DNA from: Geosiphon pyriformis uo1
Taxonomy: Eukaryota > Fungi > Glomeromycota
DNA length: 64,000 nt
Direction of reading: 5' to 3'
Assembly: GCA_016748015.1 (NCBI GenBank)
Contig: JAAOMT010000233.1
Span: forward strand, 127,422 to 191,421
Made by a program: the position numbers and the translations under genes. Under the pieces are notes generated by a model. It made no database searches, was not told the DNA's origin, and saw nothing but the letters and a program-made list of their open reading frames with translations. Below are positions 12,464 through 37,669 of this stretch, piece after piece (the stretch's first letter is position 1; each line of letters opens with the position of its first letter).

Positions 12464-14199
12464 ACAATCTGAAGGTTTTTTTTTGTTTAATTTCTTTGTA
12501 TAATAAACAGAAATTCAATGGTGTGCAATTCTTTTATGATGGGTTTTCCAATTTTTTTCTTCAGCTTGATGGCCAGTTTATTCTGGCAGTCATGCCCTTC
12601 TGGTAAGCTATCCAAATTTCCACTCTGTACCCTTTTATTTGGGTCTTTTACCAGGCTATCTATGACGTTAATAACTCAGTGCTTAATTCTTAATCAATCA
12701 GTAAACAATAAAAGAAATAAAATACAAAAGAAAATTAAAGAAATAAAATATAAGCCAAGGCAATAAAGTTAATATCTCGTTAATAGCCATTGTTACCAGT
12801 AGAATTTTAGCTATTAATTAGCATGAAATTACCCTTATAATTCTTATTATTAATTAGCATATATCATTATCATTTCGATTATCACTTATTAATTAACTAA
12901 ATTATCAAATATTATTACTCAATCAATAATCCGATTTGTACTCTAGAAATTAAGATGATCAAATTACACAATACCCTGAACCATTTAACATAGTCAAAAT
13001 TCGCCGAAATTAATGAAAATTTGCCGAAATAATCAATAGTTCAGTGAAATAACTTGTAGTTCGCCGAAATGTATCTTTAGTTCACCCAAATTCTAACAAA
13101 AAAAAAAGTGCAAGTTCAAAGACTAGTACTACAACAAGTTGTATAAAAGAAGAGCTTCTCTCTTCAAGAAAATGTATCTTCTCATAGTATCTTAACATAG
13201 TATTTTACCTTAGATATCTTAATTGAAACAAATCACCTTTTACATATTCAAATAAAAATTAAATATTCGAAAACCAAATCCTCAAATTATTACACTTGAA
13301 GTTTTCTCAACACAACTAACATTTTGAAATTGATTAGCTACCAATTTCAGTAATCTGTTAGTGACTCCAGGCCTGGATAGAAAACGTTTCCCTTGATCAA
13401 ATCCTATTTCTTTTACATTTCTTTTATTTTTCTTTTTTTTTCTTATTTACAACCATTAGGGTAGCCTACAAACGAGATTCCTGTAGAAGAGTTGACTTTC
13501 ACAGCAAAGTAACTACACATTTTAGTGAGCTTCTAGACGAGCAATTTCTGGGAAAGAGTTGATGTTTACTACAATGTAACTACACAAGTAACTGGCAAGG
13601 AATTGGCTATTCCATTTATAAGCCCAGCAGTTCAAATTATAGGAGATAATTTGAAGATAAATTCAGTTACTGGAGGTCCAACTACTTTCTGGAAACGTGA
13701 ATTCACAGCAAATCAATATTAACAACATTCAAGAAAAGAGACCAAAAACCTCGAGTAATACCATGATCAAGAGCTATTGTTCCAGTGTAATCAAGTATTC
13801 AATACTATCAACATGAAGTGTTAATAGTGGGGAGAGTGATTTAGATGGTGAATAATTATTTATTGATATTGATAATTCTAATATAGATGTGGTAATAGAA
13901 AAATCTTGGTAATTATTCTGTCTTTTTTGCTTCTAACACTCTTGCTATATATACATAATTTAGGTTCTATAAAATCACTCATATTGCTGAGCATTGTGCT
14001 ATAATTTCTTGAGCAATACTTATATTGCTGAGCAATATGCCCTAACTTTCTAATATTGTTTTACATTGCTGAGCAATGTGCCATAATTTTTGATATTGCT
14101 CCACATTGCTGAGCAATGTGCTCACATGCTAACTACTACTCTTCTATTGGTTTATCTGTTTTCTTACTTTTTTTTTAATTGTTTTCTTTATGAGTAACA
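12464..14199 (-). mobile_element. Element C 5' LTR (3'-truncated), interrupted by a family A solo LTR
   Basis: Reverse complement starts TGTTACTCATAAAG and matches 1194-1958; the last ~125 bp of the LTR are missing. Confidence 0.88.
12791..13760 (+). mobile_element. Solo LTR, family A
   Basis: TGTTACCAG...CGAGTAATA flanked by the perfect TSD CCAT (12787-12790 / 13761-13764); no PBS or PPT. Confidence 0.94.
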
Positions 14200-17100
14200 A
14201 TAAAATTACAGCTTTTAAGAAAACACTTTTCTAGTATATTGAAAACCAAATCAATGATTATTTTTTTAGAAACTACAACATTACAGAAATTAAGTAAAAC
14301 TTTCTTAAAAATCTTATTTACTACTTAGATAAAGATACAAAAAATATTAGTTCTGACAATTGTGCTACTTATTTCAAAGAACTAAATTACAATATTATAT
14401 AGTTTTGTGAAAAAAAGTATTTTGCCAACTCACAATTTATTTTTGAACTTAAATTAGCAGAAAAAACAAAAAGAAAAACATTTAATCAGTTTAAACAACA
14501 CTTAACACATTAAAGACAACTTTTCAACACTTATAAACACTTAAATAAGGAACTAGTTCAAAATTACTATTTTTAATTATACTCTTTCTAGCTTTTCTTG
14601 CTTAAGCTTAAACACCAAATTTACCACTTAACTGTTTTTCAAGACCAGAAAATTTTACATTATCAAAAAACCTAACATAACAGTCTGAACTAATCTTTAC
14701 TAGTACTAATCTTTTCAACTTCTTAGCAAAAAACCAAAGCAATTACTTTAATAACAACAAAAATATTTTTGAATGTACAAAAAAAAACTATTTAAGATGA
14801 GAATACAGAAAAAATAGCAATCATTTACATCACAAAAATTACTGAATTTATTGGAAAAAATGCTAACACCAGTTCACAAAAATGACTTGACAAAGTCCAA
14901 AAAGCTGGAAATATAAATAAATAAAATACCATAAAAATGCTCAAAGCTATTCCTTATTTTCTTCAAGAAACTATATGTAAATGATTTGAAAACTTAGACA
15001 CATTCTTTAAAACTTGACAAGCATTTAAAAATGCTTTTCTAAAACAATTTACCAATAACAACATCTCTATTACTCTTTGAAACTGATTTTAAAACATTAA
15101 ACAAGAACTTTTGAATCTATTTTAACCTATCTTGAAAAGTTCAACAAATTTTTTTAATAAATTTGACAATTAAAAACCAACAAGCATTACTCTAATACTT
15201 AAATTTTAGACCAATTTATAATCAAATTAAAAGACAAATTAATTAAAAAAGTTTGTTTCTATGCCTTAGTAGATTTAGTTACAGTTATTTAACATGTAAA
15301 AAACTACAAAATAACAATAAAAAAAGCAAACTGCACCAATTTTATAAACTTTGCAATCAACAAAACCAGCTTAGCAGCTGAAGAAAAAATTAATTAACTT
15401 GCAAAAAAAGTTGAAAACTAATAACAACAGCAACAACAAAAATATTAACCATCCTAAAAACACAATCAAAATAACTACCTATCATTATCAAACAACCAAT
15501 TTCAAAACTGTTATTATTGTAATTTTAGAACACTAGAAACAAGATTGCCAAAAGATACAAAGAGATTAACAATCTAATCTTAGCCATTCTACTATCAACT
15601 TATTATTTACTAAGATTTTAATATTAGAACAATTACTATTCATCTGTTTCTCAACTTATTCAACAAAAATATTTACAATTACTAGTTTAATAATATCAAA
15701 TATCTGCTTAAAGATTGGTTTAGCAAAACCAATTTGCAATAAACAATAGTAGATTCAATTTAAATAACTAATTAGTTTTCCAAAATCCAGCTTAACAAAA
15801 ATCCAACCATTATCATACATAATCTAGTTATTTTACAATATCAAAAGAATTGGATTTTTAATAAACTGTATTTTCTAAAGATAAAACTGCAATCTCAAGA
15901 CAAAACTCTTTTAAGAATACCATTTTACCAGTCCAAATCACTTAAAATACCAACTTTTTTAATATCTTTTTATTTGAATTCAAAGCCAATAAATTATTAT
16001 TTTTACTTAGTAATATAGCAGTTACAAATCAAAAAACAATTATAGTAATATACATTAAAACCAAAATTGAAAAAAACCAATTCAATTATTTTTAGACAAT
16101 AGATTTATTAAAAGTATTATTACCTATTAATTAATATAACAGCTACAATGAATTATCAACAAATCTGCTCAAGCAGTTATCATTACAGCAGATAACATAA
16201 AAAAACTTTAATAAAAGATATTAACAACTTTTTATTTATAATCAATAGAATTACTATTTCAATTAAAGTTCTAGTCATGAATACATTTCAATATCAAACT
16301 CTTACCAAAAACAATTGGCTTTTTAAAGCCAATGCAAATTTAGATTAAAAAATCCAAAAACTCAAGATTTTATATCAAAAACAATATATTAGAGTATCTG
16401 CTACTTGTAATACTTTTAACAAATAATTAAAAATAGCCTCTGTATTTGAATTTAAAAAAAAATGCCAATTACTAAAACTTATATGGCTCTTGAATCAACA
16501 TTCAATTAAATTGAAAAAACAGAACAAAAAATTTTCAAAAAGACCAAAAAATAGAATATTGTTTACTATTTTAAACTAAAACCACAAAAACAGCTATCAT
16601 ATATTTTATTTAAATACAAAGATTGCAACAAAAAGCTTTTATTAATAAGAGCTTGTATATTACTAAAAAAAGAATATAAGATGTATACTTGCTATTATTG
16701 TAAAGCCTACTATTAAAAAAAATTTATATACTCCAAACAAAGCAAAAAATAAGACAATACTCTTTGTCTTACTTGTGGAAAATTACTACCAAAAGAATAC
16801 AATTAGATTAATATTGCAATAAAAGGAAGAGGATATAACTAAATTTGTTAATATGTTTTATTAATTACAGAAAAAATGAAAAGAAGAACTTTATTTAATA
16901 CTATTTATAACAGCATCTTTAACAAACTTTATTACTATCTACATAATATTAAAATAATATATAGTTCTGATTAACAGAAGAACTTAAAAAAATATTTGCC
17001 AGATAAAAAAAGCAAAGTACATTAAATATACAATAAAATTAACTGGATTTAATTATAAAAATAAAACAGAAACTTATTACCAGATTACAAGTTATGTTTA

Positions 17101-18051
17101 TTCAACCAAAAAAGCTCAAATTCAATAATTAGAACATATAAACATTCAACTATATAAAGAATATATAATATTTTGTGATAATCAATAATGTTCAAAATAC
17201 TATGCTCTTAGTATTTTTCTGTCCAGCAAAAGTAATAAGTATGAAATTAAATTTGGAAAACTTAAACTGAAAAAAAAAATACAATTACATTAATCTATCT
17301 AACTGAAAATCAGCCTATCATACAACTCAAATATTTTGACAACAATAGACAAGAAATTAAGCCAAAAAAAGCTTATGAAATTGATGCTAGATATAATCTA
17401 TAATATTCAAACAAAAATACTTTGGTCTTTTAATCCAAGTTCTTAATAAAAATTAATCTTAAAATTGCTTTTAAAATACTACCAGAAGCAATAGTTCAAA
17501 TTGTTTTTCAATTATTATTGGCAAGCAAAAAAATTAGTATTAGAGAAAAAGTTATAGATACAGGATATACTGGAGATATTATTATTATGCTACAAAATAA
17601 AACTAATAAACCATTTAAAATTAAGCATGCTAAAAAAATTGCCCAAGCAATTTATCTACTCTTAATCAATATTTCGGATTTGCAATTAGTTAATTAAAGA
17701 GAACAATTAAGCAGAAGTAATAGAGAAACTTAAAGTTTTGGTTCAACAAAATAATTTACAGTTTTAGCAAATATAGCTTTTAATGCACAAAATAAATCTT
17801 ACCAAATTCTTCGACTTTTTTAACCAATTACCATATTACTTTTTGGAAAACATCACAAAATTTACACTTGTTTAAAACTTACTACTATCCAACAAATCTT
17901 CAAATCAAATAAACAAATTTGTTTGAAATACAAAATTTCAATTTCAAATATTTATATTCTAAAAGAGATAAAAAATTCTGAGTTATATTTTATAATCCCA
18001 ACAATTACTCTATTGTTTTATTAAATAAATTAGAAATTAGATAATACATAG
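14200..18051 (+). mobile_element. Element B: decayed gag, protease, Cys-rich domain and dUTPase (older copy of family A)
   Basis: Colinear with 19175-23145 of A with heavy C>T/G>A decay; dUTPase remnant at ~17320-17752. Confidence 0.92.
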
Positions 18052-19045
18052 TGTTACCAGTAGAATTTTAGCTATTAATTAGCATGAAATTACCCTTATA
18101 ATTCCTATAATTTATTAGTATATTAATATCATTTCAAATTATCATTTATTATTTAATCAATTATCACATATCACGATTCAATTAAAATAATCTAATTAGT
18201 ATAACAGAAAGTAGGATGATCAAATTACACAATACCCTGAACTTTGTAACATACAGAAATTCGCCGAAATTTATAAGAAATTCGCCGAAATTTACAGAAA
18301 TTCGCCAAAATTATGAATAGTTCACCCAAATTAATCAATAGTTCAGCGAAATAACTTGTAGTTCATCAAAATGTATCTTTAGTTCGCCAAAATTTGAGCA
18401 AAGAGAAAAAGTGCAAGTTCATAAACTAGTACTACAACAAGTTGTATAAAAAAAGAGCTTTTCTCTTCTGGAAAATGTATCTTACTTTAGATTTATCTCT
18501 TAAAACCGTTCCTATACACACAAAAAGAAATAAATATCAAATAATTCGAAAAAACCAAATTCTTTAATTATTGTACTTGGAAAAACCCCCAAAACCCAAC
18601 TAACATTTTGAAATTGATTAGCTACCAATTTCAGTAAACTGTTAGTGACTCCAGGCCTGAATAGAAAACGTTTCTCTTGATAAAATTTTATTTTTTTTAC
18701 ATTTCTTTTATTTTTCTTTTCTTTTCTTATTACAATCATTAGAGTAGCCTACAGATGAGATTCCTATAGAAGAGTTGACTTTCACAGCAAAATAACTACA
18801 CATTTTTAGTGAGCTTCCAGACGAGCAATTCCTGGGAAAAATTTAACATTTACTACAACGTAACTACATAAAGTAACTGGCAAGGAATCGGCCATTCTAC
18901 TTATAAGCCCAGCAGTTCAAATTATAGGAGATAATTTGAAGATAAATTCAGTTATTGGAGGTTCAACCACATTCAGAAAACGTGAATTCACAACAAACAG
19001 GCATCAACAACATTTAAAAAAAGAGACCAAAAACCTCTGGTAACA
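18052..19045 (+). repeat. 5' LTR of element A
   Basis: TGTTACCAG...CTGGTAACA inverted termini; matches 26699-27650 and 12791-13760. Confidence 0.96.
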
Positions 19046-19047
19046 TT

Positions 19048-19064
19048 TGGTGCTCTCCCACGGA
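19048..19064 (+). promoter_or_regulatory. Primer-binding site (complement of a tRNA 3' end, isotype not determined)
   Basis: TGGTGCTCTCCCACGGA 2 nt after the LTR; the same TGGTGCTCTC core, intact or decayed, follows the 5' LTRs of B, D and G. Confidence 0.88.
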
Positions 19065-19090
19065 AATAACACAGCAACAACAAATTCAAA

Positions 19091-21100
19091 GTGGCGACCA
19101 CACCAGACACAGCAACTCTAGAGTATTACCAGTCAATTTACACTCACTGCAAGCAAAGATGCAACATTCCAGACGGAATTGAAGTTGTAAAGAAATCAGT
19201 ATACCAATACATTGAAAACCGCATCAACAATTATCTTTTTGGAAACTACAACATTTCAGAAGTTAGAAGCAATCTCTACAATAATTTAGTGCACTATTCA
19301 CAATTGAGAACAGAAAACCTGAACAGTGAAACACTTGCTACCTACTTCCAAGAACTTAATTTTAATATTATTGAGTATTGTGAAGAAAAATACCCAGTAC
19401 AGTCTAAATACTCTTTTGACTTTGAATCAGAGACAGAAACAAACAACAAAGACAAACAAAGATTAAAACAATACTCAAGAACCACTTCAAACACTCCAAC
19501 ACTACAAAAGACAACTGCCAAACACTTGCAAACACCTGAACAAGGAACCAGTGTCAAATTACCGCTTTCTATTACACCATTTCCAATTTCATTTGTTCAA
19601 CCACAAACACCAAGTTCACCACTTAGCTATTTCTCCAGACCAAAAGATTTTCAGTCACCTAGAAATCCTACTCAACAGCAAAAACCAATATCAACAAGTG
19701 CCAATATCATTGATTACTTACAGGAAAACGAAAGTAATCACTCAGAAAGCTTGGAAAGTGAAGAAACTGAATCAGAACCAGAAAAAATTACAGAAAACGA
19801 AGAAGAAATGGCAACTGTTTATATTGCAAAAATCCCAGAATTCACTGATAAAGACAATGATACCAGTCCTCAAGAATGGCTTGACAAGGTTCAAAAAGCA
19901 GGAGATGCAAATGGTTGGATTGCAGCAAGAATGCTTAAAGCAATTCCCTACTTTCTCCAAGGAACAGCAGGAGAATAGTTTGAAAATTTAGAAAAACCAT
20001 TTGAAAACTGGCAAGCATTCAAAGATGCTTTTCTATAACAATTCACTGACAACAATACCTCTATTACTCTCAAAAACTGCTTTCACAATATCAAACAAGA
20101 AACATCTAAATCTGTTATGACCTATTTTAGAAGATTTAACAAACTTCTCAAACAAATTCAACAATTGAAAACCAATGACTACTATTTTGATGCTCAAATT
20201 CTGAATCAGTTTATAGCAGGATTAAAAGACAAACTGATTAAGAAAGTCCATCCACATGCTCCAGCAGACTTAGCAACTGCTATTAGACATGCAAAAAGCT
20301 ATGAAATGGCAATGGAAGAAGCAAATCACACCAAGCTTGTAAACCTTGCAATTGGAGAAACCAGCTCAACAGCTGAAAAAAAGATAGACCAACTCACAAA
20401 GAAAGTTGAAAGCTATTTTACAAACCAACAACAACAGCAGCAACAACCACAAAGATATCAACCACCACAATGACGCAACCAAAACAATTTTGGATTACCA
20501 TCCAACAACCAATCTCAAAATTGTCATTATTGTGGAATTCCAGGACACTGGAAACGAGATTGTAGGAAATTGCAAAGAGACCAACAAAATAGGAGTAATC
20601 AACATTACTCTTCACTACAACAATCTTATTACCAATTTCCACCACCAACCTATTATTCACCAAGACCACAAAATCAAAACTACTATCCACCAGCTCCATA
20701 ATCAATGCAGCAACAATATTAGCAACCTTTACCAATTCAGCCATATCAGACACCATCCACTCAACAATATCAAGTACCAGCAAGAAGATTGGTTCAACAT
20801 AACCAATTCACACCCCAAAATCAATTGCAGAATAACCACAACAGAATCAATCCAAATAACCAGTTGGTTCCCCAAAATTCGGGTCAGCAAAGACCCAATC
20901 ACTATCACACTCAACCCAGTTATCTTACAATACCAGAGGAATCGGATTTTCAACAAACTGCACTTTTTGAAGATGAAGTTGCAGCGCTAAGATCAAACTC
21001 TTCCAACCACACTATTCCACCAGTTCAAATTGCCCAAAATGCTAATCTGTCAGATATATTTCCATTTGAATTTGAAGCAAATGAATCACTATTTCTGCTT
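19091..21100 (+). pseudogene. gag: gag with N-terminal extension, capsid-like region, CCHC zinc knuckle and Q/N/P-rich tail (in-frame stops)
   Basis: KIPEF..SPQEWLDKVQKAGDANGW retrotransposon-gag motif; CHYCGIPGHWKRDC knuckle at ~20522-20563; ORFs 19091, 20117 and 20789 share one frame broken by point stops. Confidence 0.9.
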
Positions 21101-21139
21101 AGTAATGCAGCAGTCAATAAACAGAAAACAATTACTGCC

Positions 21140-21472
21140 ATGTACACAGAAGCTACAGTAGAAGGAAAACTCATTCACTCAATTTTAGATAGTAGATTAG
21201 CTGGAAGTATCATTACTTACCAGCTGATGCAACAACTCAAACGAAACATAGACAGACCAGTTCAAACAGTTATTGTCACAGCTGATAGTATGAAGAAGAC
21301 TTCAGTAGGAGAAATTGATAATTTCTCCTTTTCAATTGATGGAATTACCATTCCAGTTAAAGTTCTTGTTATGGATGCACCCCAATATCAAACTCTAGTC
21401 AGAAATGATTGGTTTCTCAAGGCCAATGCAAACCTGAACTGGGAAACTCAAGAACTTAAAATCTTATACTAA
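21140..21472 (+). pseudogene. Retroviral-type aspartic protease
   Basis: ILDS(R<G)LAGSII...VKVLVMDAPQYQTLV(R<G)NDW, a decayed DSG active site with a GNDW-type motif. Confidence 0.88.
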
Positions 21473-21694
21473 GGACAATATACCATAGTACTTGTAACCT
21501 GTGGTACCTTTAACAAACAATCAGAAAAAGCTCCAGTATTTGAATTTGAAGAAAAGAAAGAAATGCCACTTACTGAAACCTACATGGCTCTTGGATCAAC
21601 ATCCAATTGGGCTGAAGAAACTGAACAAAAGATTTTTGAAAAATCAAAGTGATAGAGGAAAGTTAAATATTCTACACCAGAACCACAGAAACAA

Positions 21695-22335
21695 CCACCC
21701 TATATTCCACTCAAATGCAAAGATTGCAACAAAAAACTTTCATCAATGGGAGCATGTATTTCTCCAGAAGAGGAATATGAAACTTATACCTGTTACTTTT
21801 GCAAAGCATGCCATAAAAAACGATTTGGATCTCCAAAAAGAAGTAGAAAATGGGACAACACACCTTGCTTTACATGTGAAGAAATGCTACCAGAAGAATG
21901 CAATTAGATTGATGTAGCAATGAGAGGAGGAGTATGTGATCAAACCTGTCAATATGCTCTATCAATTTCGAAAAAAGTCAAAAGAGGAACACCATTTGAT
22001 GCAGCATACAACAGTGCTTTCAATAAACTTTACCACTACTCTCATAATGCTGAAATGATTTTTGACTTAGCAATGGCATTGATTAATAGAGCCACCTAAG
22101 AAAATGTTTGCCAAATAAAAGAAGCTGAATATATTGAGTATACCATGGAATTAGCTGGATTTGATTATGAAGATAAAGTAGAAACCTACCACTAAATTGC
22201 AAGCCACACATATCCAACCAAAGAAGCTCAAATTCAACGATTAGAGCAAATGAACATTCAATTGTGTAAAGAATGTGTTATGCCTTGTGATAACCAATGG
22301 TGTTTAGAATGTTATGCTCTTAGCATTCCTCTGCC
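21695..22335 (+). pseudogene. Cys-rich putative zinc-binding domain of unknown function within pol
   Basis: In the gag-pol frame: CKDC..CYFCKAC..CFTC..CDQTC..helical stretch..CKEC.MPCDNQWCLEC; homologues in B, D and G. Confidence 0.7.
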
Positions 22336-22429
22336 AGATGAGAATGATGAAAATGAAATCGAATTTGGAGTATCTGAACTAGTAGAAGAACTACCAACCA
22401 CTCCCATCTATCTTCTTGAAAAGCAATCA

Positions 22430-22865
22430 CTTCTACAACTTAAATATTTTGACAACCATGGCCAAGGAATCAGACCAGAAAAAGCACACAAAATTGATGC
22501 TGGATATGACCTAAGATATTCAGGAAAAGATACTTTGATTCTCCAACCAAAGTCTTTGACAAAAATCAATCTCAAAATTGCTCTTGAAATTCCACCAGGA
22601 GCAATGATTCAAATTGCCTCCAGATCATCATTGGCAAGCAAAGAAATCAATATTAGAGGAGAAGTTATAGATGCAGGATACACTGGAGACATTACCATTA
22701 TGTTACAGAATGAGACAGACAAACCATTCAAAATTGAACATGCTGAAAAAATTGCTCAAGCAATTTACTTACCCTTAATCAACATTTCGGGTTTACAATC
22801 AGTAAACAACAGAGAACAATTAGGAAAAGTGAAAGAGGAACTCAAGGTTTTGGTTCAACTGGATG
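22430..22865 (+). pseudogene. dut: Trimeric dUTPase domain within pol
   Basis: Motifs I-V: DAGYDL, SRSSLA, (G)VIDAGYTGDI, KIAQAI, and RGTQGFGSTG after a 1-nt deletion near 22825. Confidence 0.93.
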
Positions 22866-23299
22866 ATTTACAGTCCCAGCAAACATAGTTCTTAATACAC
22901 AAAATGAATCTTACCAGATTTTTCAACTTCCTCAGCCAATTACCATTTCACCTTTTGGAGAACATCACGAAATTTACACTTGCTCAAAACCCACCACTAC
23001 ACAACAAATCTGTTTGAAGCATGAAATATCAATTTCAAACATTTATATTCCCAAAAGAATAAAAAAATTTCGAGTTACATTCTACAACCCCAATAATTAC
23101 CCTATTGTTTTATTAAACAAATTAGAAATTGGAATCATACACAGCAATATCTTTCAAGATGAAAACCCTCAAATTATATCTAATTTCATCGAAATTGTAA
23201 AGCACACTCGACTCCCAAATCCAAATATTATTCTCACTACTGAAAACTACCACTTGTTGGAAGAAAAACTTTCTCAAATTAATATGGGTCTCTTAGAAT

Positions 23300-24690
23300 C
23301 TCAACAACAAAGACAATTGAAGCAATTAATAGCTGAATTTGCAGATATATTTGCAAAAGACAACAATAACTTGAGAAAAACAGACATTGTTCAACATCAG
23401 ATCCATACAGGAAATGCTCTATCAAAACGTCAACAAGCTTATCAAGTGCCACCTGCCAGCCACCAATTCATTAGAGAAGAGGTCCAAAGAATGCTCAATA
23501 ACGGATTGATTTAACCATCAAGAAGTCCTTGGGCCTCACCAGTAGTTTTAGTTAAAAAGAAAAACGGAAAAATCAGATTCTGTGTTGATTATAGACAACT
23601 GAATAGTGTTACAATTGGAGATGTCTACCCTCTTCCAAGAATTGATAACATGCTAGATGCTCTAGGAAAAGCCAAGTTCTTTTCAACTTTAGACCTGGAA
23701 AGTGGATACTGGCAAGTCAAAATGGACCCAAAAGATAGACTCAAAACAGCATTCACCACTCAAGGAGAAAATTATGAGTTTAATGTTATACCTTTTGGAC
23801 TCTGCAATGCATCAGCAACATTTCAGTGACTCATGGATGTTGTCTATAAAGGGCTTTTGTGGCAATCAGTAGTTGTTTATCTTGATGATACTGATGTATA
23901 CTCACCAAGCTTTGAAGCCCATCTTATTTACCTGCAAGAAGTTTTTCAATGATTACGGAAAGCAGGATTAAAGTTAAATATTAAAAAATGTCACTTTGGA
24001 AAAACAAGTTTGATCTTTCTTGGACACATAGTTAGTAAAGATGGAATCAAACCAAATCCAGGAACAATCAGTGCTGTCAAAAACTTTTAAACCTCCAGAA
24101 ATACTACAGAACTAAGAGGATTTGTGGGATTAGTCTCTTACTATCAAAAATTCATAAAAGGATTCTCAGAAATTGCCAAACCACTCAATTATCTTATCAA
24201 CAAAAACGTACCATACAAATGGACTAAAGAACAACAAAAAGCTTTTGAAATTCTCAAAACAAAATTAACAACAGCCCCAGTTCTTGCTTACCCAGACTTC
24301 AACAAACGATTCCAATTAGCCACTGATGCCTTACATATAGCATTTAGTGCCATCTTATCACAATTGGATGAAAATGGCCAGGAACAAGTTATTGCCTATG
24401 TCAGCAGAACACTCAAGCCAACAGAACTCAAATATGGCTCAACTGAATTAGAAGCTGCTGCAGTTATTTGAGCTCTTAAACATTTTCAACAATATCTGAA
24501 GAATGGAAAAGAATTTGACATAATAACAGACAACATTGGCCTCAAATGGCTCAATAAAAAGAAAACTGAACAAAGTGCCAAACAGTTTTGATAGAATGAC
24601 TTCCTAGCAGACTACAGATATATTGTACACCACAAATCAGGAAAACTACATATTAATGTTGATAGCCTCTCAAGAATGAGACAAGATTAA
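23300..24690 (+). pseudogene. pol: Reverse transcriptase and RNase H (Ty3/gypsy)
   Basis: SPWASPVVLVKKKNGKIRFCVDYRQLN, LDLESGYWQV, PFGLCNA, YLDD (~23878), FQLATDA, YGSTELEAAAV. Confidence 0.95.
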
Positions 24691-24747
24691 TACCAACAAC
24701 AATTCCACCACAACTTACCAACTTACCAACAAAATAACCAAACAAAA

Positions 24748-25868
24748 ATGGATCCCAGAAACTACAGCAATCTTAAAAATTATTTGAAGACTTTTACCAT
24801 GCCAGAAAACTGGTCTCCAAGTGAAAAATACCGCTTACAACACCAATTAAAACAATATTTCATACACCAGAACAAAATCTATTATAAAAATCACAGAAAA
24901 CCAAACCAGCCACTCAGATTAGTACAAGAGAATGAAAAAGAAACAATTTTATACAACATGCACACAAATCCGTCTTCAGCACACTTGGGAAAAGAGGGAA
25001 CAATTCAAAGAACTCTTGAACATTATTTTTGGCCTCATATACAAAAAGACATTCGACAATATGTAGAATCTTGTGATAATTGTCAAAAAAGAGGAGGAAC
25101 TCACCCCACAGAACCTTTAAATTCAATCAAAGTTGGACAACCTTTTGACAGAGTTGAAATTGATTTAGTCGGACCATTACCTATCACAACCCAAGGAAAT
25201 TGTTATATTGCAGTTGCAGTGAATTATCTTACCAAATAGCCTGAAGCTAGAGCCATCCAAAGAGCAGATGCAAAATCAGTAGCAAATTTCATCTATAAAG
25301 ACATTATCTGTAGACATGGATGCCCAATTGAACTCTTATCTGATCAAGGAACACATTTTGTGAACAACTTGATACAAGAAATTTGTGAATGGTTCAATGT
25401 CAAAAGATCTTTATCATCACCTTATCACCCTCAAACAAATAGACTTGTAGAACATTTCAACAGAACATTGTGTGAATCTCTAGCCAAAGTCTCAACAAAC
25501 TTTGAACAGGAATGAGATATCTTTATTCCATTAGTGTTACTAGCATACAGAACACTAAAACAAGATACTACGAAANNNNNNNNNNNNNNNNNNNNNNNNN
25601 NNNNNNNNNNNNNNNNNNNNNNNNNNNNNNNNNNNNNNNNNNNNNNNNNNNNNNNNNNNNNNNNNNNNNNNNNNNNNNNNNNNNNNNNNNNNNNNNNNNN
25701 NNNNNNNNNNNNNNNNNNNNNNNNNNNNNNNNNNNNNNNNNNNNNNNNNNNNNNNNNNNNNNNNNNNNNNNNNNNNNNNNNNNNNNNNNNNNNNNNNNNN
25801 NNNNNNNNNNNNNNNNNNNNNNNNNNNNNNNNNTTATAATAGAACAACAACCAAACTTGAACACTTAA
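24748..25868 (+). pseudogene. pol: Integrase (HHCC + DDE); C-terminal part falls in the N gap
   Basis: H..AHLG..YFWP..CDNCQ; IDLVGPLP; SDQGTHF; YHPQTN.LVEHFNRTL. Confidence 0.93.
25576..25833. other. Assembly gap (N run)
   Basis: Run of N; the homologous interval in B (~50790-51320) is about twice as long. Confidence 0.99.
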
Positions 25869-26010
25869 ATTTTACAATAATTCTCTAATAAAAACACAAA
25901 GACAAAAATAGTAAATAATTACAAAACACTCAAACCCAAAGACAAATAAAAACCCCATATCCAAAAATCATTTTCTTTATTCTCTCTTTTCATAATTAGT
26001 CAATTTTATT

Positions 26011-26718
26011 ATGATTATTCCCCGAAATATTCAACAAATATCCCAAAAATTAATGTTAGCCTTGAAAACACTCCCTGACTTATCTATAACGATTAATGGA
26101 AGTCAAATTAAATACATTCAGAAAGAAACCACAGCCCCAGTAGCAAATCATTTACAGAATTATCACCCCTATAGAAGAAAAACAAGAAGTCACTTTGAAA
26201 ATAGATTACCAAGACTTTTGAAGCAGGCACTAGAAGAAAATCTTTTAATTGCCCCTATTGACATTCCACCAAATGCTACAATACAACAAAAACTTTTACT
26301 ACTTTTTAATAAACAGAACAATGAACACACCCCTATCTATAAATACTTTCAAATTAAAAAAACACTTTATGAACGAAAACTGGTACTTGAAGCAACAAAT
26401 CTCACTCCTAAAGTTATACAAAAACAAATCCACAATGAATTCAAAACAGCAGCTGAACCAACAAACACTCGCTACAAACTTAGAGCAGCTCTTAGACTCT
26501 ATGACTTGTTTAATACTTGTGAAAATATTTTACAAAATCCAATACTGCAACCAATGAAAGTCCAATATATTGGCAAATTCACAGAACTGAAATTTCAACA
26601 ATTTTCAGACCAGATTACTTCAATTATTTTAGATCACTATCTCAATATTACAGATAGTGCTTGGACTTTGACAGAGCTCAGTCTTGAGAAAGAGATTATG
26701 TTACCAGTAGAATTTTAG
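26011..26718 (+). CDS. ORF3: intact 235-aa accessory protein downstream of integrase, function unknown
   Basis: Uninterrupted ATG-initiated ORF running over the PPT into the 3' LTR; homologous motifs at the same position in B, C, D and G. Confidence 0.8.
   Translation: MIIPRNIQQISQKLMLALKTLPDLSITINGSQIKYIQKETTAPVANHLQNYHPYRRKTRSHFENRLPRLLKQALEENLLIAPIDIPPNATIQQKLLLLFNKQNNEHTPIYKYFQIKKTLYERKLVLEATNLTPKVIQKQIHNEFKTAAEPTNTRYKLRAALRLYDLFNTCENILQNPILQPMKVQYIGKFTELKFQQFSDQITSIILDHYLNITDSAWTLTELSLEKEIMLPVEF
26684..26698 (+). promoter_or_regulatory. Polypurine tract of element A
   Basis: TGAGAAAGAGATTA directly before TGTTAC of the 3' LTR; similar tracts in B, C, D and G. Confidence 0.75.
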
Positions 26719-27650
26719 CTATTAATTAGCATGAAATTACCCTTATAATTCCTATAATTTATTAGTATATTAATATTATTTCAAATTATCATTTATTATT
26801 TAATCAATTATCACATATCACAATTCAATTAAGATAATCTAATTAATATAACAGAAAGTAGAATGATCAAATTACACAATACCCTGAACTTTGTAACATA
26901 CAGAAATTCGCCGAAATTATGAATAGTTCACCCAAATTAATCAATAGTTCAGCAAAATAACTTGTAGTTCATCAAAATGTATCTTTAGTTTGCCGAAATT
27001 TGAGCAAAGAGAAAAAGTGCAAGTTCATAGACTAGTACTACAACAAGTTGTATAAAAGAAGAGCTTTTCTCTTCTGGAAAATGTATCTTACTTTAGATTT
27101 ATCTCTTAAAACCGTTCCTATACACACAAAAAGAAATAAATATCAAATAATTCGAAAAAACCAAATTCTTTAATTATTGTACTTAGAAAAACCCCTAAAA
27201 CCCAACTAACATTTCGAAATTGATTAGCTACCAATTTCAGTAAACTGTTAGTGACTCCAGGCCTGGATAGAAAACGTTTCTCTTGACAAAATTCTATTTC
27301 TTTTACATTTTTTTTATTTTTCTTTTCTTTTCTTATTACAATCATTAGGGTAGCCTACAGACAAGATTCCTGTAGAAGAGTTGACTTTTACAGCAAAGTA
27401 ACTATACATTTTAGTGAGCTTCCAGACGAACAATTCCTGGGAAAGAGTTGACATTTACTACAACATAACTACATAAAGTAACTGGCAAGGAATTGGCCAT
27501 TCCATTTATAAGCCTAGTAGTTCAAATTATAGGAGATAATTTGAAGATAAATTCAGTTATTGGAGGTTCAACCACATCCAGAAAACGTAAATTCACAACA
27601 AACAGACATCAACAACATTTAAGAAAAGAGACCAAAAATTTCCAGTAAAA
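26699..27650 (+). repeat. 3' LTR of element A
   Basis: Direct repeat of 18052-19045, 42 bp shorter (two fewer TTCGCCGAA units). Confidence 0.96.
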
Positions 27651-28167
27651 ATAGTAATATTTTTCAAGATAAAACTTCTTAAATTGTCTTTAATTTCATT
27701 AAAATTATGAGACATACTCTTCTTCCAAATCCAAATATTCTGTTTATTATTAAAAACTATTATTTTATTGAGAAAAAACTTTTTTGGATCAACATAAGTT
27801 TCTTAGAATTCCAATAACAAAGATAATTAAAACAATTAATTGCCAAATATGCTGATATATTTGTCAAAAACAACAATAATCTTGGAAAAACTAATATTGT
27901 GCAGCATTAAATTTACATAGAAATTGCTTTACCAAAATGTTAATAAGCTTATTAAGTCTTATTTGCTAGACACCAATACATTAAAAAAAAAGTACAACAA
28001 ATACTTAACAATAGTTTCATCCAATTATTAAGAAGTTCCTGAGTCTTATCAATAGTTCTTATCAAAAAAAATAGAAAAATCAGATTTTGTGTAAATTATT
28101 ATTAACTGAATAATATTATAATAAAAGATACTTATATACTATTAAGAATTAATAACATGCTGGATGT
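27651..28167 (+). mobile_element. Element B: RT N-terminal piece between insertions A and D
   Basis: Colinear with A 23141-23660; resumes exactly after the TSD. Confidence 0.9.
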
Positions 28168-31100
28168 TGTTACAGATAAACTTGGTAGTATATGGTAATA
28201 ATATTTGGTGCTTAAAATTTGGGGTTTTTAGGGAGCTTTTAATGGTTTTTTTTTGGTAGGCTCATTTATTGTGTCAATATTATCAGTTTCTGAAGATCTT
28301 TTAGATTGTTATGAATTTATCTGTAGAGTTCTTTAGTTATAAGGCACAGAGAGATGTTTTGTAGTATTGCAATGTCTTATATGTAAATATAAGCTATTTT
28401 TTCCAAGCTAATAAGCACAATTGTTAAGGTCTGATAGTGTCTTTTCACTCTTTTGATAAGCTACCAAAATAATGTTAATATTCAAATTTAGAAAGAGCTT
28501 CTTTCTTTTACTAGACTATTACAAAGTTTATTTTTAGACAGTCAATTTTTCTATATTGTTACTCCACAAGAGAGAATTAAAAATAAAATAAAATAAAATA
28601 AAAAAATAAAATAAAAAATAAAAAAATAAAAAAAGATGAATTAGTATTGTCAATTGTCATGATCAAGAGTGATTGGTCCAGGTTATTAAGAGTTTGAGGC
28701 ATTTATGCTAAGAGCATCTGTCCTGAAATAAAAAGATGAAACAAAGATTAGTTCAATTTAAATACAAGATAATTGATAACTATGTATCAAAAATTTTGTA
28801 GTTTTCAACTAAGTCTTTTATTTTTGTAAAATGTAATAATTATAAGAAAAAGGAAAATTGATTCTTATTTGAATGTTTTTTTAACTTCTATAACTACTCA
28901 TTTTTATACATTTTTTTTGGTTCTATAAGATTGCTTTTTAATTGTTTTGTTTTTGCTAGTTATTACTTTGCTATTTCTGTTATCATTTTATTTTTCTATA
29001 TTATTACTAGTTATCTTATGTTTTAACTAATTATTTTATGTTATAATATATTATCAAATTTTGTATTATATTATTCTAAGTTATTATGTATTATTATGTA
29101 TTCTTTTATGTTATTCTGTCCTATTTTATGTTGTTATGTTTTTGGTTACATTTTCTCTATAACTTTGGATTGGTTTTTCTATTTAGGTAACATTATCCCT
29201 CTTTTTTTAGAATTGAGCTTTTGCAAAATTATATCTATCTGTAATAATTGTATTTTCTGTTTAGTATTTGATTGTTGTATCAAATATTGCTTTTTGTAGG
29301 TTTTTAAACTGTGTATTCATTATTTATTCTATGTTGTTGACCATAATAGTTGTTAATAAGCTGTCTAATAGTACAGCTAAACAGTATTTGAATGCTGAAT
29401 ATAAACAATATGCTGTTTTGTAATTCAGTATTAGGTTGCTTCTTTCTACAAATTTTTCTACTTGTTTAAGGGCCACTTTGTTGAATGTCTAATGGTTGTA
29501 GTTTTTGTATAATGTGCTCAATCTTAGTTGTTTACTAATCTTATAAAACCAATAGACTAGTGGAAGTTTTTCTTTCCATATTCTGGTATTGTATAGTGTC
29601 CATTTTTCTGTTGCTGGTTCTTTAGTTATCCTACTTAAAGCTTTTTTGATTTCTTTGAGCTTTATATGACATGTATCTATTTTTGTTACTTTCTTTCTCT
29701 TTTTATTTGTGTGGAGTTTTCTTTCAACATATCTTTTTTTTTTTTGCCCTCTTTTTTTTTTTAATTATTGTGTAGAGCACTAATTACCAGAATAAAGAGT
29801 CATTCATAGGGATGAGATTGTTCAGTTTTAATTGAACTTTTACTCACCTCTTTTCTGTTTTTGTCTTTGTATCATATCTCTTTTTTATCAATTGTAATTT
29901 CTATTTGAATCATAGAGTATTGAATTGCATCAAATAGTTGTTTCAAAAGTTGTAAAATTAGATTTAATAGGTTTATGTTACAAGTTTTATTGATTTATTC
30001 TTGTTGTTTTAATGATTATATATACTTAAATTTTCCAATTAAATAGTTGTGTATCAATTATGTTTTGATAATAATAATTAGTTCTAGATTTTGTAGTATA
30101 TTTTCAGGTCTAATTAATCAAATTTGTATTTTTAGTTGAGATATGAATAACAATAACTCTTGTTTTGTATGATAAATTTTTAACCAATTTTCATGTGCTA
30201 TTTTTTTTAAAATTTTGTTTTCCAATTGTAATTTGTAAGCTCTGTTGCCTAAAACTTTGTGTATGTGGAATAAACTGTCCTATTTTGGATCAAACTTTCC
30301 ACTCCACTGTTTCTCAACTTTTGTACAATACAATAGTACTTGGTCTCTAATTTTAAATTCTATTGGTTGTTTAGGTAGACAGTTATCATATCTTTCTTTT
30401 TGTTATTTTTAAGCATTACTAATGTTATCAGCTGCTGTTTTGCAATTGTCTTCCAATGTTTTTATGAGCTAGTATATTCTTTGGTACAAGATAGCTTCAA
30501 AATTTTTTTTGGTGATTACTTTTGTTAGATAAAACAGTATTTCTCATTCAATAGATAAAGTGGCTTTTCTTTTATAGACTAATTCAAATAATATGAACTG
30601 AATCATATCTTGTTTTAATGTTCAGTATATAAATAATATGAAAGATATAAATAAGTCTCATTCTTGTGCATTTTCATAGCATATTTTTGCTAATGCTTCA
30701 CACAACATCTAGTTAAATTGTTCTACCAGTCTATTTGTTTGTGAGTAATATGATAACAATAAGGATCCTTTTTATTTCAAACTATTGGCTTAGTTCAGTT
30801 AATATACTATTGACAAAGTGAGTTTTTTGGTCTGATAATAATTTTTTTAGGCATTTATGTTGGCAAATTAAGTATTAATGTACAAATTCAGTTACTGTTT
30901 TAACATTGGTCACTTAGATTGCTTTGGTTTCTGGCTATTTTATAAGATAGTCTATTACTATGGCTATATAATGATTTTTTTGGATGTAATTGAGAGAAAA
31001 CCAACCAAATTGCTTCTAATTTTATCAAATAGATTTTTAATTAGAATGAATCAAAGTAGTTCTATTGATTTTGTTTCTCCTCTTTTTTGGCAAGAGTCAC

Positions 31101-32658
31101 AATTGAGCATGTATTCGACAATATCTTTATATATTATTGGCCAATAGTATTAGTTTATGGTTTTTTCTAGAGTAGTGTTTTTGTTGAAATGTTCTGCAGT
31201 TGGATCAAAATGCATATTATGTAAAATAGTTTTTTTTATTGTCTTTTATAATTTATTATAAAGTGGTACAGTTTTAATATTCTTGACAATATAGTTAGTT
31301 ATTTTGAATAAAGTATATTTAAACATGTTTTTGTATAATATTCTGTTTCTGTTGAAGTAAAATCTCTTTAAACTGAAGTGTTAATAAGTACTTATATAAT
31401 TGCTAATAAGTAATTGTATCTATAGATTTGAGACTAGACTTGTGTTATCTTTGACAAGCTGTTAGAATTAGCATTTTTGAATCTTTTTTTGTAATGAACT
31501 TTGTATAGAAATTGTTGCAGATAAGTATTCCATCACACATATTTTTCTTCTGATTGTGATTTGTTAAATAACTAAATAAGCTCTTTATAATTGGTTAAGA
31601 TAATGTTTTCAAGTATATATGGCTTAATAGATGGCAAGACATTCCAAATCCATTGCATTGTATATTTTCTCTGCTGAATTTGTGCTATAACTAGCATATA
31701 CAATTGAATATTTTCTGTTGTCTAATTCAATTTGGAACAGAACTACTCCTAATGCATTTTTCAAGACATCTGTTGCAATCATAAACTTTTTGTTGAAGTT
31801 GGAGTAGATTAAAATTGGTGCTATAATCAATTGTTATTTGAGATAATTAAATGCTTCTTGCTGTTTTTTCTCTAAAAATATGGCACATGTTTCAATAGTA
31901 AGTAGTAGAAAGATTTGGCAATATCTGAAAATTTTTTAACAAACCAATAATAGTATTCAACCAGTCCTAAGAATCCTTTTAGTTCTTGTAAATTAGTTGG
32001 AACATTGATATTGTCCAGATATACTATGACTGATTTTCATAGAATTCTTTTATACATAATATTCATTAGTTATTAAAAGGTAGTAGAAGTGTTGCAAAAT
32101 CCAAAAAGCATTATATTGAACTCAAAATTTCTATCTTGTATGGTAAATACCATTTTTTTTTGTATTTTGGATCTATTTCGACTTGCTAATATCTGTTGAC
32201 AAAATCTAAAGATGAGAATTATTTCTTCTTAAATTGTTCAAAATTTTTTGAATGAGTGAAGTGGAATAACTATCTTCATAAGTAATATTATTTAGTTTCC
32301 AATAATCTATACAAAACGTTATCTTTTCATTTTTTTTTATAACTAATACAATTAAAAAGAACCAAGAGTTTAACAATTCTTTGATCAGATTATTGTCAAA
32401 TATTCATTGTACCTCTTGTTTGATTAGATTATTGCCTATTGGATTTACTTTATAGATTTATTGTTTAATAGGTTGCATGTTTTTCATGTCAATCTGGTGT
32501 TTAATAATATTGGTGTATCTGAACTTATTTTTACTGGCAAAAACATCAGCATACTAATTTAAAAGAACCTTGAGTTGTATTTGCTGTAGAGTACTTAAGT
32601 TTCCTAAATTTAATTTGTTAATTTCTTCCAATGTAAACAAGTAACTTTTTTTTAACAG

Positions 32659-33477
32659 TATTACTCATAAAAAAAACATACAAGAAAAATAATAGAAAAA
32701 AACAGATAGATCAATAGGAAAATAGTATCTAATACATAAGCATATTGCTTAGCAATATGAAACAATATCAGAAAATCATAACACATTGCTTAAGAAATTA
32801 TAGCACATTGCTCAGAAATATAAGCAATCTCATAGAACCCAAATTATATATATATAACAAGAGTGTTAAAAGCAGAAAAGACAGAATTCTCAGCTATAAT
32901 CAATATCAAGATTTGACAGAATAGAATCAGCAATATCAATAAAATAACTATTTACCATTCAAATTACTTTTCTCACTATTAACACTACATATTAATAGTA
33001 TTTAATACTTAATTGTATTGGAAAAATAGCTCTTGATTATGGCTATTGATATGATATTAACTTTTTATTGCCTTGGCTTATTTTTTATTTTTATTTTTAT
33101 TTTTTTTATTTTTTTTTTATTTTTGTTTATTGTTGTATACTAATTGATTAAAAATTAAGCACTGAATTATTGATGTCAAGAATAGTCTGGTAAAAGATCT
33201 ATGAAACAAGGATAGAAAACTCAAAAATTGAGGATAGCTTACTAAAAAGACACAACTGCCAGAATAAACTGGCTATCATGCTAAAGAAAAAAATTTGATG
33301 GAATTGTGATTCCAAAAAACTACTGAAACAACACTTGAATTTCTGTCCTTTATACAAAAAACTTAACCAAACCTTCAAATAACCAAAATCTTCAGATATC
33401 ACTAACTGTATCAGCTATTGAGCATCAATTTATGGATTTATTATTTGATTTGAGACTCCAAATAATCACTTATAACA
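32659..33477 (+). mobile_element. Solo LTR, family C-like, inside pol of D
   Basis: TATTACTCAT...TATAACA with the perfect TSD ACAG (32655-32658 / 33478-33481). Confidence 0.92.
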
Positions 33478-36400: not shown

Positions 36401-37669
36401 CTCTCAATTTTCTGAGTTAATTTTTCACTTAATTGGATAAGCTTTTTGTTAATATTAGAAGTTCTATTGATGACCAAATTAATGACTTAAGTGTGATTGG
36501 TTTTTTATTTTGCTAATTCAAAGTTATGAGCAAAAAAAACTGCTTCTTGTAAGTTTGTTGGGTGTCAGAGTTTTATTCATTGTAGAATGTTATTTTTTAA
36601 TCCTTTAATAAATTGATTAAGAATTTGTCCAAGTGTGTAATAGTTCTTCTCAATTACTTAAATCTATTGGAAAATTTGATTAAATTATTTAAGATAAGTG
36701 GTTACAGCTTCATAATCTTTCTGTTTTACTATGCTAAACTGATTTTGTGATCTGATGAGTGTATTAGAGTTGTAAAAATATTGCAAAAAAGCAAGTTTGA
36801 AAGCAGCAAAGTTAGTTGGTTTTTCTTTGAGACTTTGGTATCATGAATCTGTTATTTCCATCAGAAAAAAAGACAATGCTTAAATTGTTCTGTTATTATC
36901 TCAATTGTTGGTAGTAATTGCTTTCTTGGCTTCTATAATCCAAGAATATGTATTATCTTTCTTTCTAGAAAATTTCTCAAGCCTAGTGATATCTTGATAA
37001 GCCATGTTTTAATTAATTGGAGATAGTTTATTGGTTGAGACTAAGAGAATTGATGATAGGGTATTATATTGTTCTTTGGGTGTTAATGCTGGTTGTTTTT
37101 TTTTGTTGAGACTAATAAGTAGCAAGATAGCTGTTTTTTCTGTAAAAGTAATTGCTAACTTTGTTAGAAGCTGTGCTAATGGTAGTATCTAAGAAGATGT
37201 GCTTCTGCCAAGTTGGCTGGCTATTGAAATAAGATTCTTAAATAATAATTTGTATTTTTCCAGAGATTTTGTCCAAAAATTATTATTATAACTCCAAAAG
37301 TACAGAGTTCCAGAAGTTCTTGAAGTTTTTATTTATGTTTCTGTAAGTTGGTTGAATAAAATTCTACTTTCTGGTGTCTGATAGTATAATAAAGTAATTG
37401 ATAAGAAGAATCTTGACTTTTTGTTGACTGTAGGTCAAGCTTGTTTTTGTGCAGCTATTGTATTATCAGATTTGAACTTAGATTCTGTAAAGTCAGACTT
37501 TACTATTTGTCTTCTTTTTACTTAAAAGTACTATTGTGTTATGTATTTCTCAATTTCTCTATCAATTATACAAAGAGTCTCAGCTATGACTTGAGTAATG
37601 GTTTTTGTTGAGTATATCAATAATTTTTGGTGTATCTGTTCTCTAATTTTTTCTGTGTTTATTGCTTGG

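Follow-up and report, generated by a model that had tools for sequence, protein, structure and literature searches.

Retroviruses and long terminal repeat (LTR) retrotransposons are assumed to deliver integrase as part of Pol, which fixes both the amount and the packaging of the enzyme. Positions 18052-27650 of a 64,000-nucleotide stretch of the Geosiphon pyriformis uo1 genome (i.e. the window; contig JAAOMT010000233.1 of assembly GCA_016748015.1, positions 127,422 to 191,421, forward strand) raise the question of how a retroelement provides integrase when Pol stops ahead of it. The locus is a single, decayed LTR retrotransposon of the Ty3/gypsy type, termed element A, for which an expanded layout had been predicted from the sequence alone. 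The 4-bp target-site duplication, Gag extension, Cys-rich region, dUTPase and third open reading frame (ORF3) of this original prediction were all confirmed, the duplication being ATAG and the LTRs ~1 kb long. Its single pol ORF was not, as the integrase is separate and lies beyond a fixed TAA at 24688-24690. This separate integrase ORF, not remarked upon in the prediction, is the defining oddity of the lineage. On balance, the comparisons favour reading A as a dead copy of a three-gene Ty3/gypsy element whose integrase has an ORF of its own, likely translated by termination and restart, and whose ORF3 would encode a small soluble protein other than an envelope (Env). The parts of A are as follows.

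18048..18051, + strand: left target-site duplication, ATAG (right copy at 27651-27654)
18052..19045, + strand: 5' LTR, TGTTAC...TAACA (TG...CA type), from LTR comparison
19048..19063, + strand: primer-binding-site (PBS)-like site, starting with TGG 2 nt past the 5' LTR
19070..19828, + strand: Gag N-terminal extension, a ~120-aa conserved domain (19079-19441) and then a low-complexity linker
19829..20362, + strand: capsid (Retrotrans_gag, Ty3_capsid; Pfam E 2.4e-12)
20519..20569, + strand: CCHC zinc knuckle (Pfam), then a Q/P/N-rich stretch
21128..21409, + strand: aspartic protease (PR) in the gag frame (Pfam E 0.0014, under the curated cut-off; 105/120 listed relatives match)
21716..22312, + strand: Cys-rich region, CxxC clusters about a helical core (sequence, alignment)
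22475..22866, + strand: trimeric-type dUTPase (Pfam E 2e-17), its last motif spanning a frame slip private to A
22867..24687, + strand: linker, reverse transcriptase (RT; YLDD at 23878) and RNase H (RH), end of ORF1 (Pfam, alignment)
24688..24747, + strand: family-fixed TAA and 57-nt CAA-rich spacer without G or ATG
24748..25868, + strand: ORF2, stand-alone integrase (IN) with its own ATG, HHCC and DDE core; C-terminal part in an N gap (25576-25833)
26011..26718, + strand: ORF3, 235 aa, predicted to be soluble and helical, of no known family, crossing the polypurine tract into the 3' LTR
26686..26695, + strand: polypurine tract (PPT)
26699..27650, + strand: 3' LTR, from LTR comparison

The TAA that ends Pol lies 12 codons beyond the start of the last RNase H motif, and the integrase ATG follows 57 nt later. 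Across 530 contigs of the family, drawn from one sequencing run that may stem from the same source as the window and so samples family copies and not another organism, no other letter was present at 5% or more within this TAA (all 13 variants at the junction were listed). Three neighbouring stop positions (i.e. 24471, 24589 and 24593) read otherwise in the majority of depth, among the 40 of 110 variants shown. Of 20 other in-frame stops in A, 18 are located at sites where relatives mostly have Q, R or W; relatives have no conserved residue at the site of the Pol-end stop.

The window contains three further elements, in which the original prediction had seen the same layout recurring.

14199..53172, + strand: element B, of A's LTR family but older; hosts A and D
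28168..49024, - strand: element D, of a second LTR family, with the same module order, a separate integrase (10-nt spacer, other frame) and ORF3; hosts G
37670..47791, - strand: element G, of the second LTR family, with the same module order, a separate integrase (10-nt spacer, other frame) and ORF3

All three have a stop at A's place. Beyond the window, a metagenome scan covering 5 of the 64 parts of the collection yielded 80 loci that were kept. A stop and then a separate integrase were found in all eight informative contigs, i.e. the six metagenome loci of A's clade showing both genes (L011, L013, L016, L026, L037 and L044) and two GTDB contigs (L090 and L091). The integrases of these eight loci start with M[D/E/N]xxxY. 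Their junctions comprise two overlaps, TAATG (-1, in L011) and ATGGATAA (-8), and spacers of 30, 62, 63, 94, 102 and 727 nt. Across the ten junctions measured (A, G and the eight loci), there are thus two overlaps, seven spacers of 10-102 nt and one of 727 nt. With L044 set aside, base shuffles predict 4.85 ATGs in the seven short spacers, which contain none (P 0.004).

The distribution of the split was examined with phylogenies. Among 120 RT relatives listed, 113 had enough coverage for a 114-row tree (FastTree), in which A belongs to a group of 60 rows (Shimodaira-Hasegawa (SH) support 84) together with four Rhizophagus clarus proteins and metagenome proteins; G. pyriformis and R. clarus are the two named host species in the data. 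Proteins ending no more than 20 aa from the end of RNase H account for 55 of the 59 relatives in this clade and for 6 of 54 outside it, the four exceptions within being three R. clarus gene models and a fused protein, P0343. In the 80-row set, the integrase tree places the eight split rows together on a single branch (SH 86). A concatenated RT-RH and integrase tree retained 36 of the 80 rows, G having been excluded from the two-gene trees owing to frameshifts, and the eight split rows with P0343 constitute one branch (100/100). Trees were built from the relatives and loci sampled here, with five Tf2-SH3-bearing loci standing for chromoviruses; a topology joining A to these five Tf2-type loci was rejected (approximately unbiased test, p-AU 0.0065). 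No clade member from IMG/VR was present among the loci placed in trees. GTDB contigs contributed three loci, two of them in the clade, and these two probably represent fungal contamination of bacterial bins.

The third gene was characterised by profile and structure searches. A Pfam search of ORF3 gave no family. Protein searches produced 202 ORF3-like proteins, all 120 of those listed being G. pyriformis gene models of up to 92% identity, and 35 representatives were found in 1.84 billion proteins (ten looked up: eight Geosiphon, two metagenome). A 3' ORF is located at the same place in four intact contigs. When a profile of these four ORFs was run against 396 proteins, of which 154 belong to the ORF3 family, that family took all of the top 60 ranks (best E 6e-4), and alignment of ORF3 to the distant 3' ORFs with hhalign gave E 0.002 versus 0.37 for a reversed control. 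The reverse search, with a profile of the Geosiphon-type ORF3, missed the ORFs of L011, L016 and L044 (E 7 or worse), and the four-contig profile found nothing in six frames of the window. On these comparisons, homology between ORF3 and the distant 3' ORFs is likely but falls short of certain. None of nine ORF3-type proteins (146-239 aa, 0-3 Cys) had a transmembrane segment; their highest 19-residue hydropathies, 0.48-1.29, are too low for a membrane anchor and ORF3 therefore does not fit Env. An all-helical model was obtained for the orthologue in L091 (146 aa, 11-row alignment; predicted local distance difference test (pLDDT) 83, predicted template modelling score 0.76). Foldseek found no match to this model at E 0.001 in PDB or BFVD, and the best Z obtained was 3.7, a lack of match that shows neither a new nor a different fold. 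Another model, built on 59 near-identical Geosiphon sequences, had a poor pLDDT of 46 and matched nothing above Z 5.0. Two other candidate assignments were rejected: clusters resembling closterovirus coat protein and T4 RegA for the ORF3 of A and L016 (ESM Atlas, 0.89-0.92) shared fewer than 140 features, which is at chance level, and a Ribosomal_S13 match on P0272 (E 0.035) received no backing from fold searches. L011 carries an additional 284-aa coiled-coil-like ORF between integrase and ORF3 (L011:7404-8255) and hence four genes.

These observations can be assembled into a tentative life cycle. ORF1, from Gag through protease, Cys-rich region, dUTPase and RT to RNase H, would end ahead of the integrase, and its product would assemble into particles and be cut by its own protease; a host tRNA and the PPT would prime reverse transcription. 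Particle assembly, tRNA priming and integration are established for Ty3/gypsy elements (PMC7879559). Integrase would be made at a low level by ribosomes that terminate at the ORF1 stop and then restart, such that the split sets the integrase dose and holds this enzyme at low levels in an element that reads Gag and RT in a single frame. Integrase would then join the particle or the cDNA without fusion to Gag. When the host supplies little dUTPase, the element's own enzyme may limit uracil in the cDNA, a role described for lentiviruses in non-dividing cells (PMC4531489). ORF3 is most likely an accessory protein that acts inside the cell, and it would probably be expressed from an RNA that is spliced or sub-genomic. 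It would probably also bind nucleic acid, a guess based on its conserved Tyr, Arg and Phe core. Restart is favoured because two junctions overlap stop and start as in known systems and because the short spacers are free of ATG. Restart at UAAUG or AUGA is described for caliciviruses, influenza B and SART1 in PMC10275272, and PMC2699510 provides a precedent in a fungal virus, CHV1.

Several results weigh against this combination of restart, a split-integrase clade and a non-Env ORF3. Only two of the ten junctions overlap stop and start, and simple restart cannot explain the 727-nt spacer of L044 with its 12 ATGs. The spacer of A has no G and therefore contributes nothing to the test for ATG depletion, and ATG-free spacers are also compatible with a spliced or internally started RNA. 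The third letter of A's integrase ATG is an A in ~39% of depth, as would be expected, though not proven, to result from decay. With respect to the clade, the count of 55/59 refers to protein ends, some of which may coincide with contig ends; the split rows without P0343 are supported at only 83/69; and RT-RH sequences by themselves fail to resolve the clade (3 changes; SH 84 in the RT tree). For ORF3, the homology with the distant 3' ORFs is weak (probability 13% in hhalign) and no fold match underlies a function.

It is possible, though unlikely, that the element has three genes but that integrase comes from a separate RNA, produced by splicing or by an internal promoter, or is translated through internal ribosome entry. 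Such a route would accommodate spacers ranging from -8 to 727 nt, including the ATG-containing spacer of L044, and inspection by eye showed T-rich stretches ending in AG ahead of the integrase ATG of L016 and of L091, as well as ahead of the ORF3 ATG of A and of L016. The ORF3s of LTR elements are, moreover, typically expressed from spliced messages, as described in PMC5408684. However, at the TAATG and ATGGATAA overlaps, and with the spacer of just 10 nt in D and G, any separate signal would have to lie inside RNase H coding sequence, and these junctions match known restart junctions.

Retention of integrase in a polyprotein, through read-through of the stop, frameshifting or a minor RNase H-integrase splice, is improbable. 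The spacer length is divisible by three in A, L013, L026 and L091, P0343 is a fused member of the clade, and RNase H and integrase are joined in P0342, a gene model from R. clarus. But all three frame relations occur, so read-through is not a general rule; the spacer of L091 starts with a second in-frame stop; and every aligned integrase (7/7) has Met at position 1. The join in P0342 drops the last RNase H motif, which is kept, together with the TAATG junction, by its close relative L011 (L011:5619-5830), suggesting that this join is an artefact of gene prediction. Gene finders may thus hide the split between RNase H and integrase.

The original prediction drew attention to retroviral or errantiviral traits, and an infectious, errantivirus-like retrovirus with ORF3 as its envelope would account for a third ORF past integrase that reaches the 3' LTR, for a dUTPase adjoining protease and for 4-bp target duplications. 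This is very improbable: Env consists of surface and transmembrane domains in the definition given by ICTV, the international committee for virus taxonomy (PMC7879559), whereas the nine ORF3-type proteins have the small size and low hydropathy given above and the L091 orthologue is modelled as all-helical. The retroviral character of the layout is accordingly not supported, as dUTPases between protease and RT have been published for gypsy elements and ORF3 lacks a transmembrane segment. An artefact of decay, nesting or assembly within one window, which the 20 other stops, frame slip and N gap of A and a nest with an apparent inversion might suggest, is hardly tenable and largely refuted: four elements from two LTR families share the layout, and it recurs in intact contigs from metagenomes and, for ORF3 and for the Cys region alike, in more than 100 gene models of Geosiphon apiece.

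The proposal of a poorly described Metaviridae lineage was upheld: a non-chromovirus Ty3/gypsy lineage of Glomeromycotina is supported and no description of it was found. Full-text literature searches returned no account of a split-integrase lineage, most subscription journals, Repbase and supplements being outside these searches. The available text of a fungal survey (PMC3248453) and of papers on transposons of arbuscular mycorrhizal fungi (PMC11952901; bioRxiv 2021.03.30.436303) makes no mention of a separate integrase; the latter preprint describes expression of gypsy elements in Rhizophagus. The ICTV layouts for Metaviridae are gag-pol, gag plus pol, or gag plus pol plus env, with integrase inside pol (PMC7879559), and none of the five integrase positions listed in the available text of PMC2774666 is an ORF of its own further downstream. 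Other gypsy lineages of fungi outside the chromoviruses are known, Ylt1 and SN_1006 being reported from asco- and basidiomycetes.

Comparison with known systems separates the ordinary from the unusual in A. With the non-chromoviral 'Branch 2' of Metaviridae (PMC7879559 and, as far as described there, PMC2774666), A shares LTRs, a PBS, a PPT, capsid, CCHC and the order PR-RT-RH-IN, but it differs in the break between RNase H and integrase and in an ORF3 that is not Env. A dUTPase between protease and RT is described for PosPlaTy3-5 of Postia (PMC2864245) and for other fungal, rotifer and planarian gypsy elements (PMC5408684, PMC6431247). PosPlaTy3-5, the Phanerochaete elements and Tmt1 of Tuber are fungal Ty3/gypsy elements with a dUTPase like that of A; the legend of the dUTPase tree in PMC2864245 gives them as chromodomain-bearing, whereas A was rejected from the Tf2-type group, and that source, compared by description only, describes no separate integrase in its available text. 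Juno, Vesta and TelKA of bdelloid rotifers and Burro of a planarian resemble A in having a dUTPase between PR and RT, no chromodomain and non-Env ORF3s, as described in PMC5408684 and PMC6431247. Juno, by the same accounts, has an extra zinc knuckle after the dUTPase, whereas the Cys region of A precedes it. These rotifer and planarian elements are, however, described as having animal hosts, integrase within pol and ORF3s of Env-like, transmembrane, GDSL or DEDDy type, while the ORF3 of A has no family. Since such dUTPases are published elsewhere and non-Env third ORFs are common, both traits are ordinary when taken alone. SART1 (a non-LTR element) and CHV1 (a hypovirus) express a downstream ORF by coupled termination-restart at a UAAUG-type junction like that of L011 (PMC10275272, PMC2699510, as described there), but neither is an LTR element, most clade junctions are spaced, and restart in the clade is read from sequence. 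Errantiviruses (i.e. the Drosophila gypsy group) have three ORFs like A, but A resides in a fungus, and its second ORF holds nothing but integrase and its third does not encode Env.

The wider proposal, which we hold tentatively and with somewhat less than even confidence, is of a Glomeromycotina-centred, polycistronic Metaviridae lineage in which free integrase would be made by stop-restart and loaded unfused, a clade-wide ORF3 would be unlike solved folds, dUTPase or NUDIX and zinc modules would be swappable beside protease, and which would be a major builder of the Geosiphon genome. If true, this is to our knowledge the first group of LTR retroelements to uncouple integrase from Pol. A clade with a separate integrase gene must settle integrase dose and packaging by other means, and with intact contigs such as L011, L016 and L044 both the loading of integrase and the restart of eukaryotic ribosomes past a very long ORF can be tested in a natural system. 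LTR sequence is given as 41.2% of the G. pyriformis genome in PMC11952901. The 120 listed ORF3-like and 120 listed Cys-region-like models are annotated as 'hypothetical', such that retroelement pieces are being counted as host genes.

Assignment of A to Metaviridae is based on two LTRs, the PBS-like site and the PPT, on capsid and nucleocapsid in gag, and on the order PR, RT, RH, IN (Pfam, structure match). The canonical placement of integrase within pol was not found, owing to the fixed stop and the integrase's own ATG; A is nevertheless classed as a variant of this family because its RT and integrase are of the Ty3/gypsy type. The Pfam matches fall in two frames: Retrotrans_gag, zf-CCHC, aspartyl protease and dUTPase share the first, and the next one carries RT, RNase H and integrase. 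The best solved-structure match was Ty3 Gag-Pol (E 4.5e-112). The first frame spans 1260 codons (stops read as X) and runs from the N-terminal extension through capsid, CCHC, protease and Cys-rich region to dUTPase. The frame slip that separates dUTPase from RT occurs in A alone; B, D and G continue in one frame past the dUTPase, and the ORF1 of the family therefore spans Gag to RNase H. A single Gag-to-RNase H ORF is also present in intact L016 and several database proteins; in L011 and L026, Gag and Pol are in different frames. The RNase H of L044 (L044:3361-7432) has a ~580-aa tail bearing Cys/His motifs, with integrase 727 nt further on, and long tails are also found in L016 and L091.

The accessory modules proved to be family traits, as predicted, and the insertion of a Cys-rich region and dUTPase between protease and RT was borne out: among the 120 Cys-region matches listed, 83 have a dUTPase and 105 a protease, with A's module order kept in 82/83 and 105/105, respectively. 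Recurrence in B, D and G held for the Cys region, dUTPase and ORF3, and D and G do represent a second LTR family; the Gag extension, which is clear in A and B, was weak in G (E 0.002) and undetected in D. In A, ~250 codons precede the capsid and the frame may open inside the LTR. The extension has no Pfam family, matches 46/120 listed Geosiphon models and is restricted to Geosiphon in the data sampled; four intact relatives carry a different one. This other domain, with a CxxC and a Trp-rich motif (L016:6801-7436, L044:460-1060, L091:3499-4058, L011:460-1060), likewise lacks a Pfam family and matches among the intact relatives at E down to 1e-21, weakly for L011.

The Cys region of A contains 17 Cys, and 17 Cys columns are conserved in at least 60% of 56 Geosiphon copies; the modules may bind zinc, judging from their motifs. 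Protein searches found 222 Cys-region-like proteins, of which all 120 listed were G. pyriformis gene models (up to 85% identity). This ~200-aa version with 17 Cys columns is of Geosiphon type, its last module being shared with metagenome protein P0340 (E 4.5e-10), and of the 42 relatives that show both protease and RT, 25 have a four-Cys/His motif in the interval between the two. Five dUTPase motifs are visible in the alignment of clade members, the fifth crossing the frame slip in A, and the activity is a predicted one. dUTPases also occur in 5/59 clade relatives and in L010, at 41-49% identity to that of A, as compared to 24-28% for an unrelated element-borne dUTPase and a viral one. This pattern could reflect a single acquisition followed by many losses, or else dUTPases being exchanged among families. 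PDB matches were flat over viral, phage and cellular enzymes and singled out no donor. Clade member P0335 has a NUDIX (MutT-like) domain before protease (E 6e-14) and no dUTPase, and thus provides the lineage with a second enzyme of the nucleotide-cleaning type. An unrelated gypsy element (L031:1125-7628) carries a dUTPase between RNase H and integrase, a lentivirus-like position, with 23-32% identity to the clade enzyme.

The predicted absence of a chromodomain was substantiated outside A only, as the C-terminus of A's own integrase lies in the 258-N gap. The integrases of B, D and G finish, by eye, after a GPY/F-type tail without a chromodomain. Intact relatives also have this tail, and Chromo matches were found in 0/6 intact clade C-terminal parts versus 6/37 other loci. 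Target duplications are 4 bp in errantiviruses and 5 bp in chromoviruses. The predicted 4-bp duplications were exact for A and two solo LTRs, with D one transition off and G two off.

The LTRs of A are identical at 905/948 ungapped columns (95.5%), with 42 transitions and one transversion. Ratios for the LTR pairs of G and D are 130:9 and 145:11, the changes being mostly at CpA and CpT, and no CpG remains in G's LTR. This pattern suggests decay resembling repeat-induced point mutation, or broad cytosine deamination, in Geosiphon, and LTR dating is therefore unreliable. The TGG start of the PBS-like site recurs in D, G, B's 5' LTR and L016; tRNA and Rfam searches found no tRNA and no Rfam family. 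A GAGCTC-like motif stands right before the PPT in A, L011 and L091 (window 26671-26704; L011:9185-9225; L091:3035-3070) and reads AAGCTC in B, D and G. The LTR start TGTTAC is common to A, L011, L016 and L091. Together, this motif and LTR start are likely a cis signal of the clade.

Other features of the window were noted. The 5' LTR of B is apparently displaced (~2216-3157, minus strand): its true 5' LTR is found in inverted orientation near 2079-3157, along with the PBS and the start of gag, adjoining the RT-RH of the element that B interrupted, an apparent inversion or misassembly. The solo LTRs are located at 12791-13760 (+), with its own CCAT duplication, and at 32659-33477, with an ACAG duplication and a relationship to a third LTR family. 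The 3' part of that third family is present at 1-2082 (+), with an integrase-tail fragment and an ORF3 homologue (548-1126, E 2e-20). Open frames of 198 aa (60432-61028, -) and 160 aa (9810-10292, -) had no match to the parts of A. A 439-bp direct repeat of 98.6% identity flanks a 20-N gap at 55928-57093 and is probably an assembly artefact. Finally, a GC-richer region at 62224-63865 contains two ~800-bp copies, 85% alike, each with a 17-bp pyrimidine-rich tandem array.

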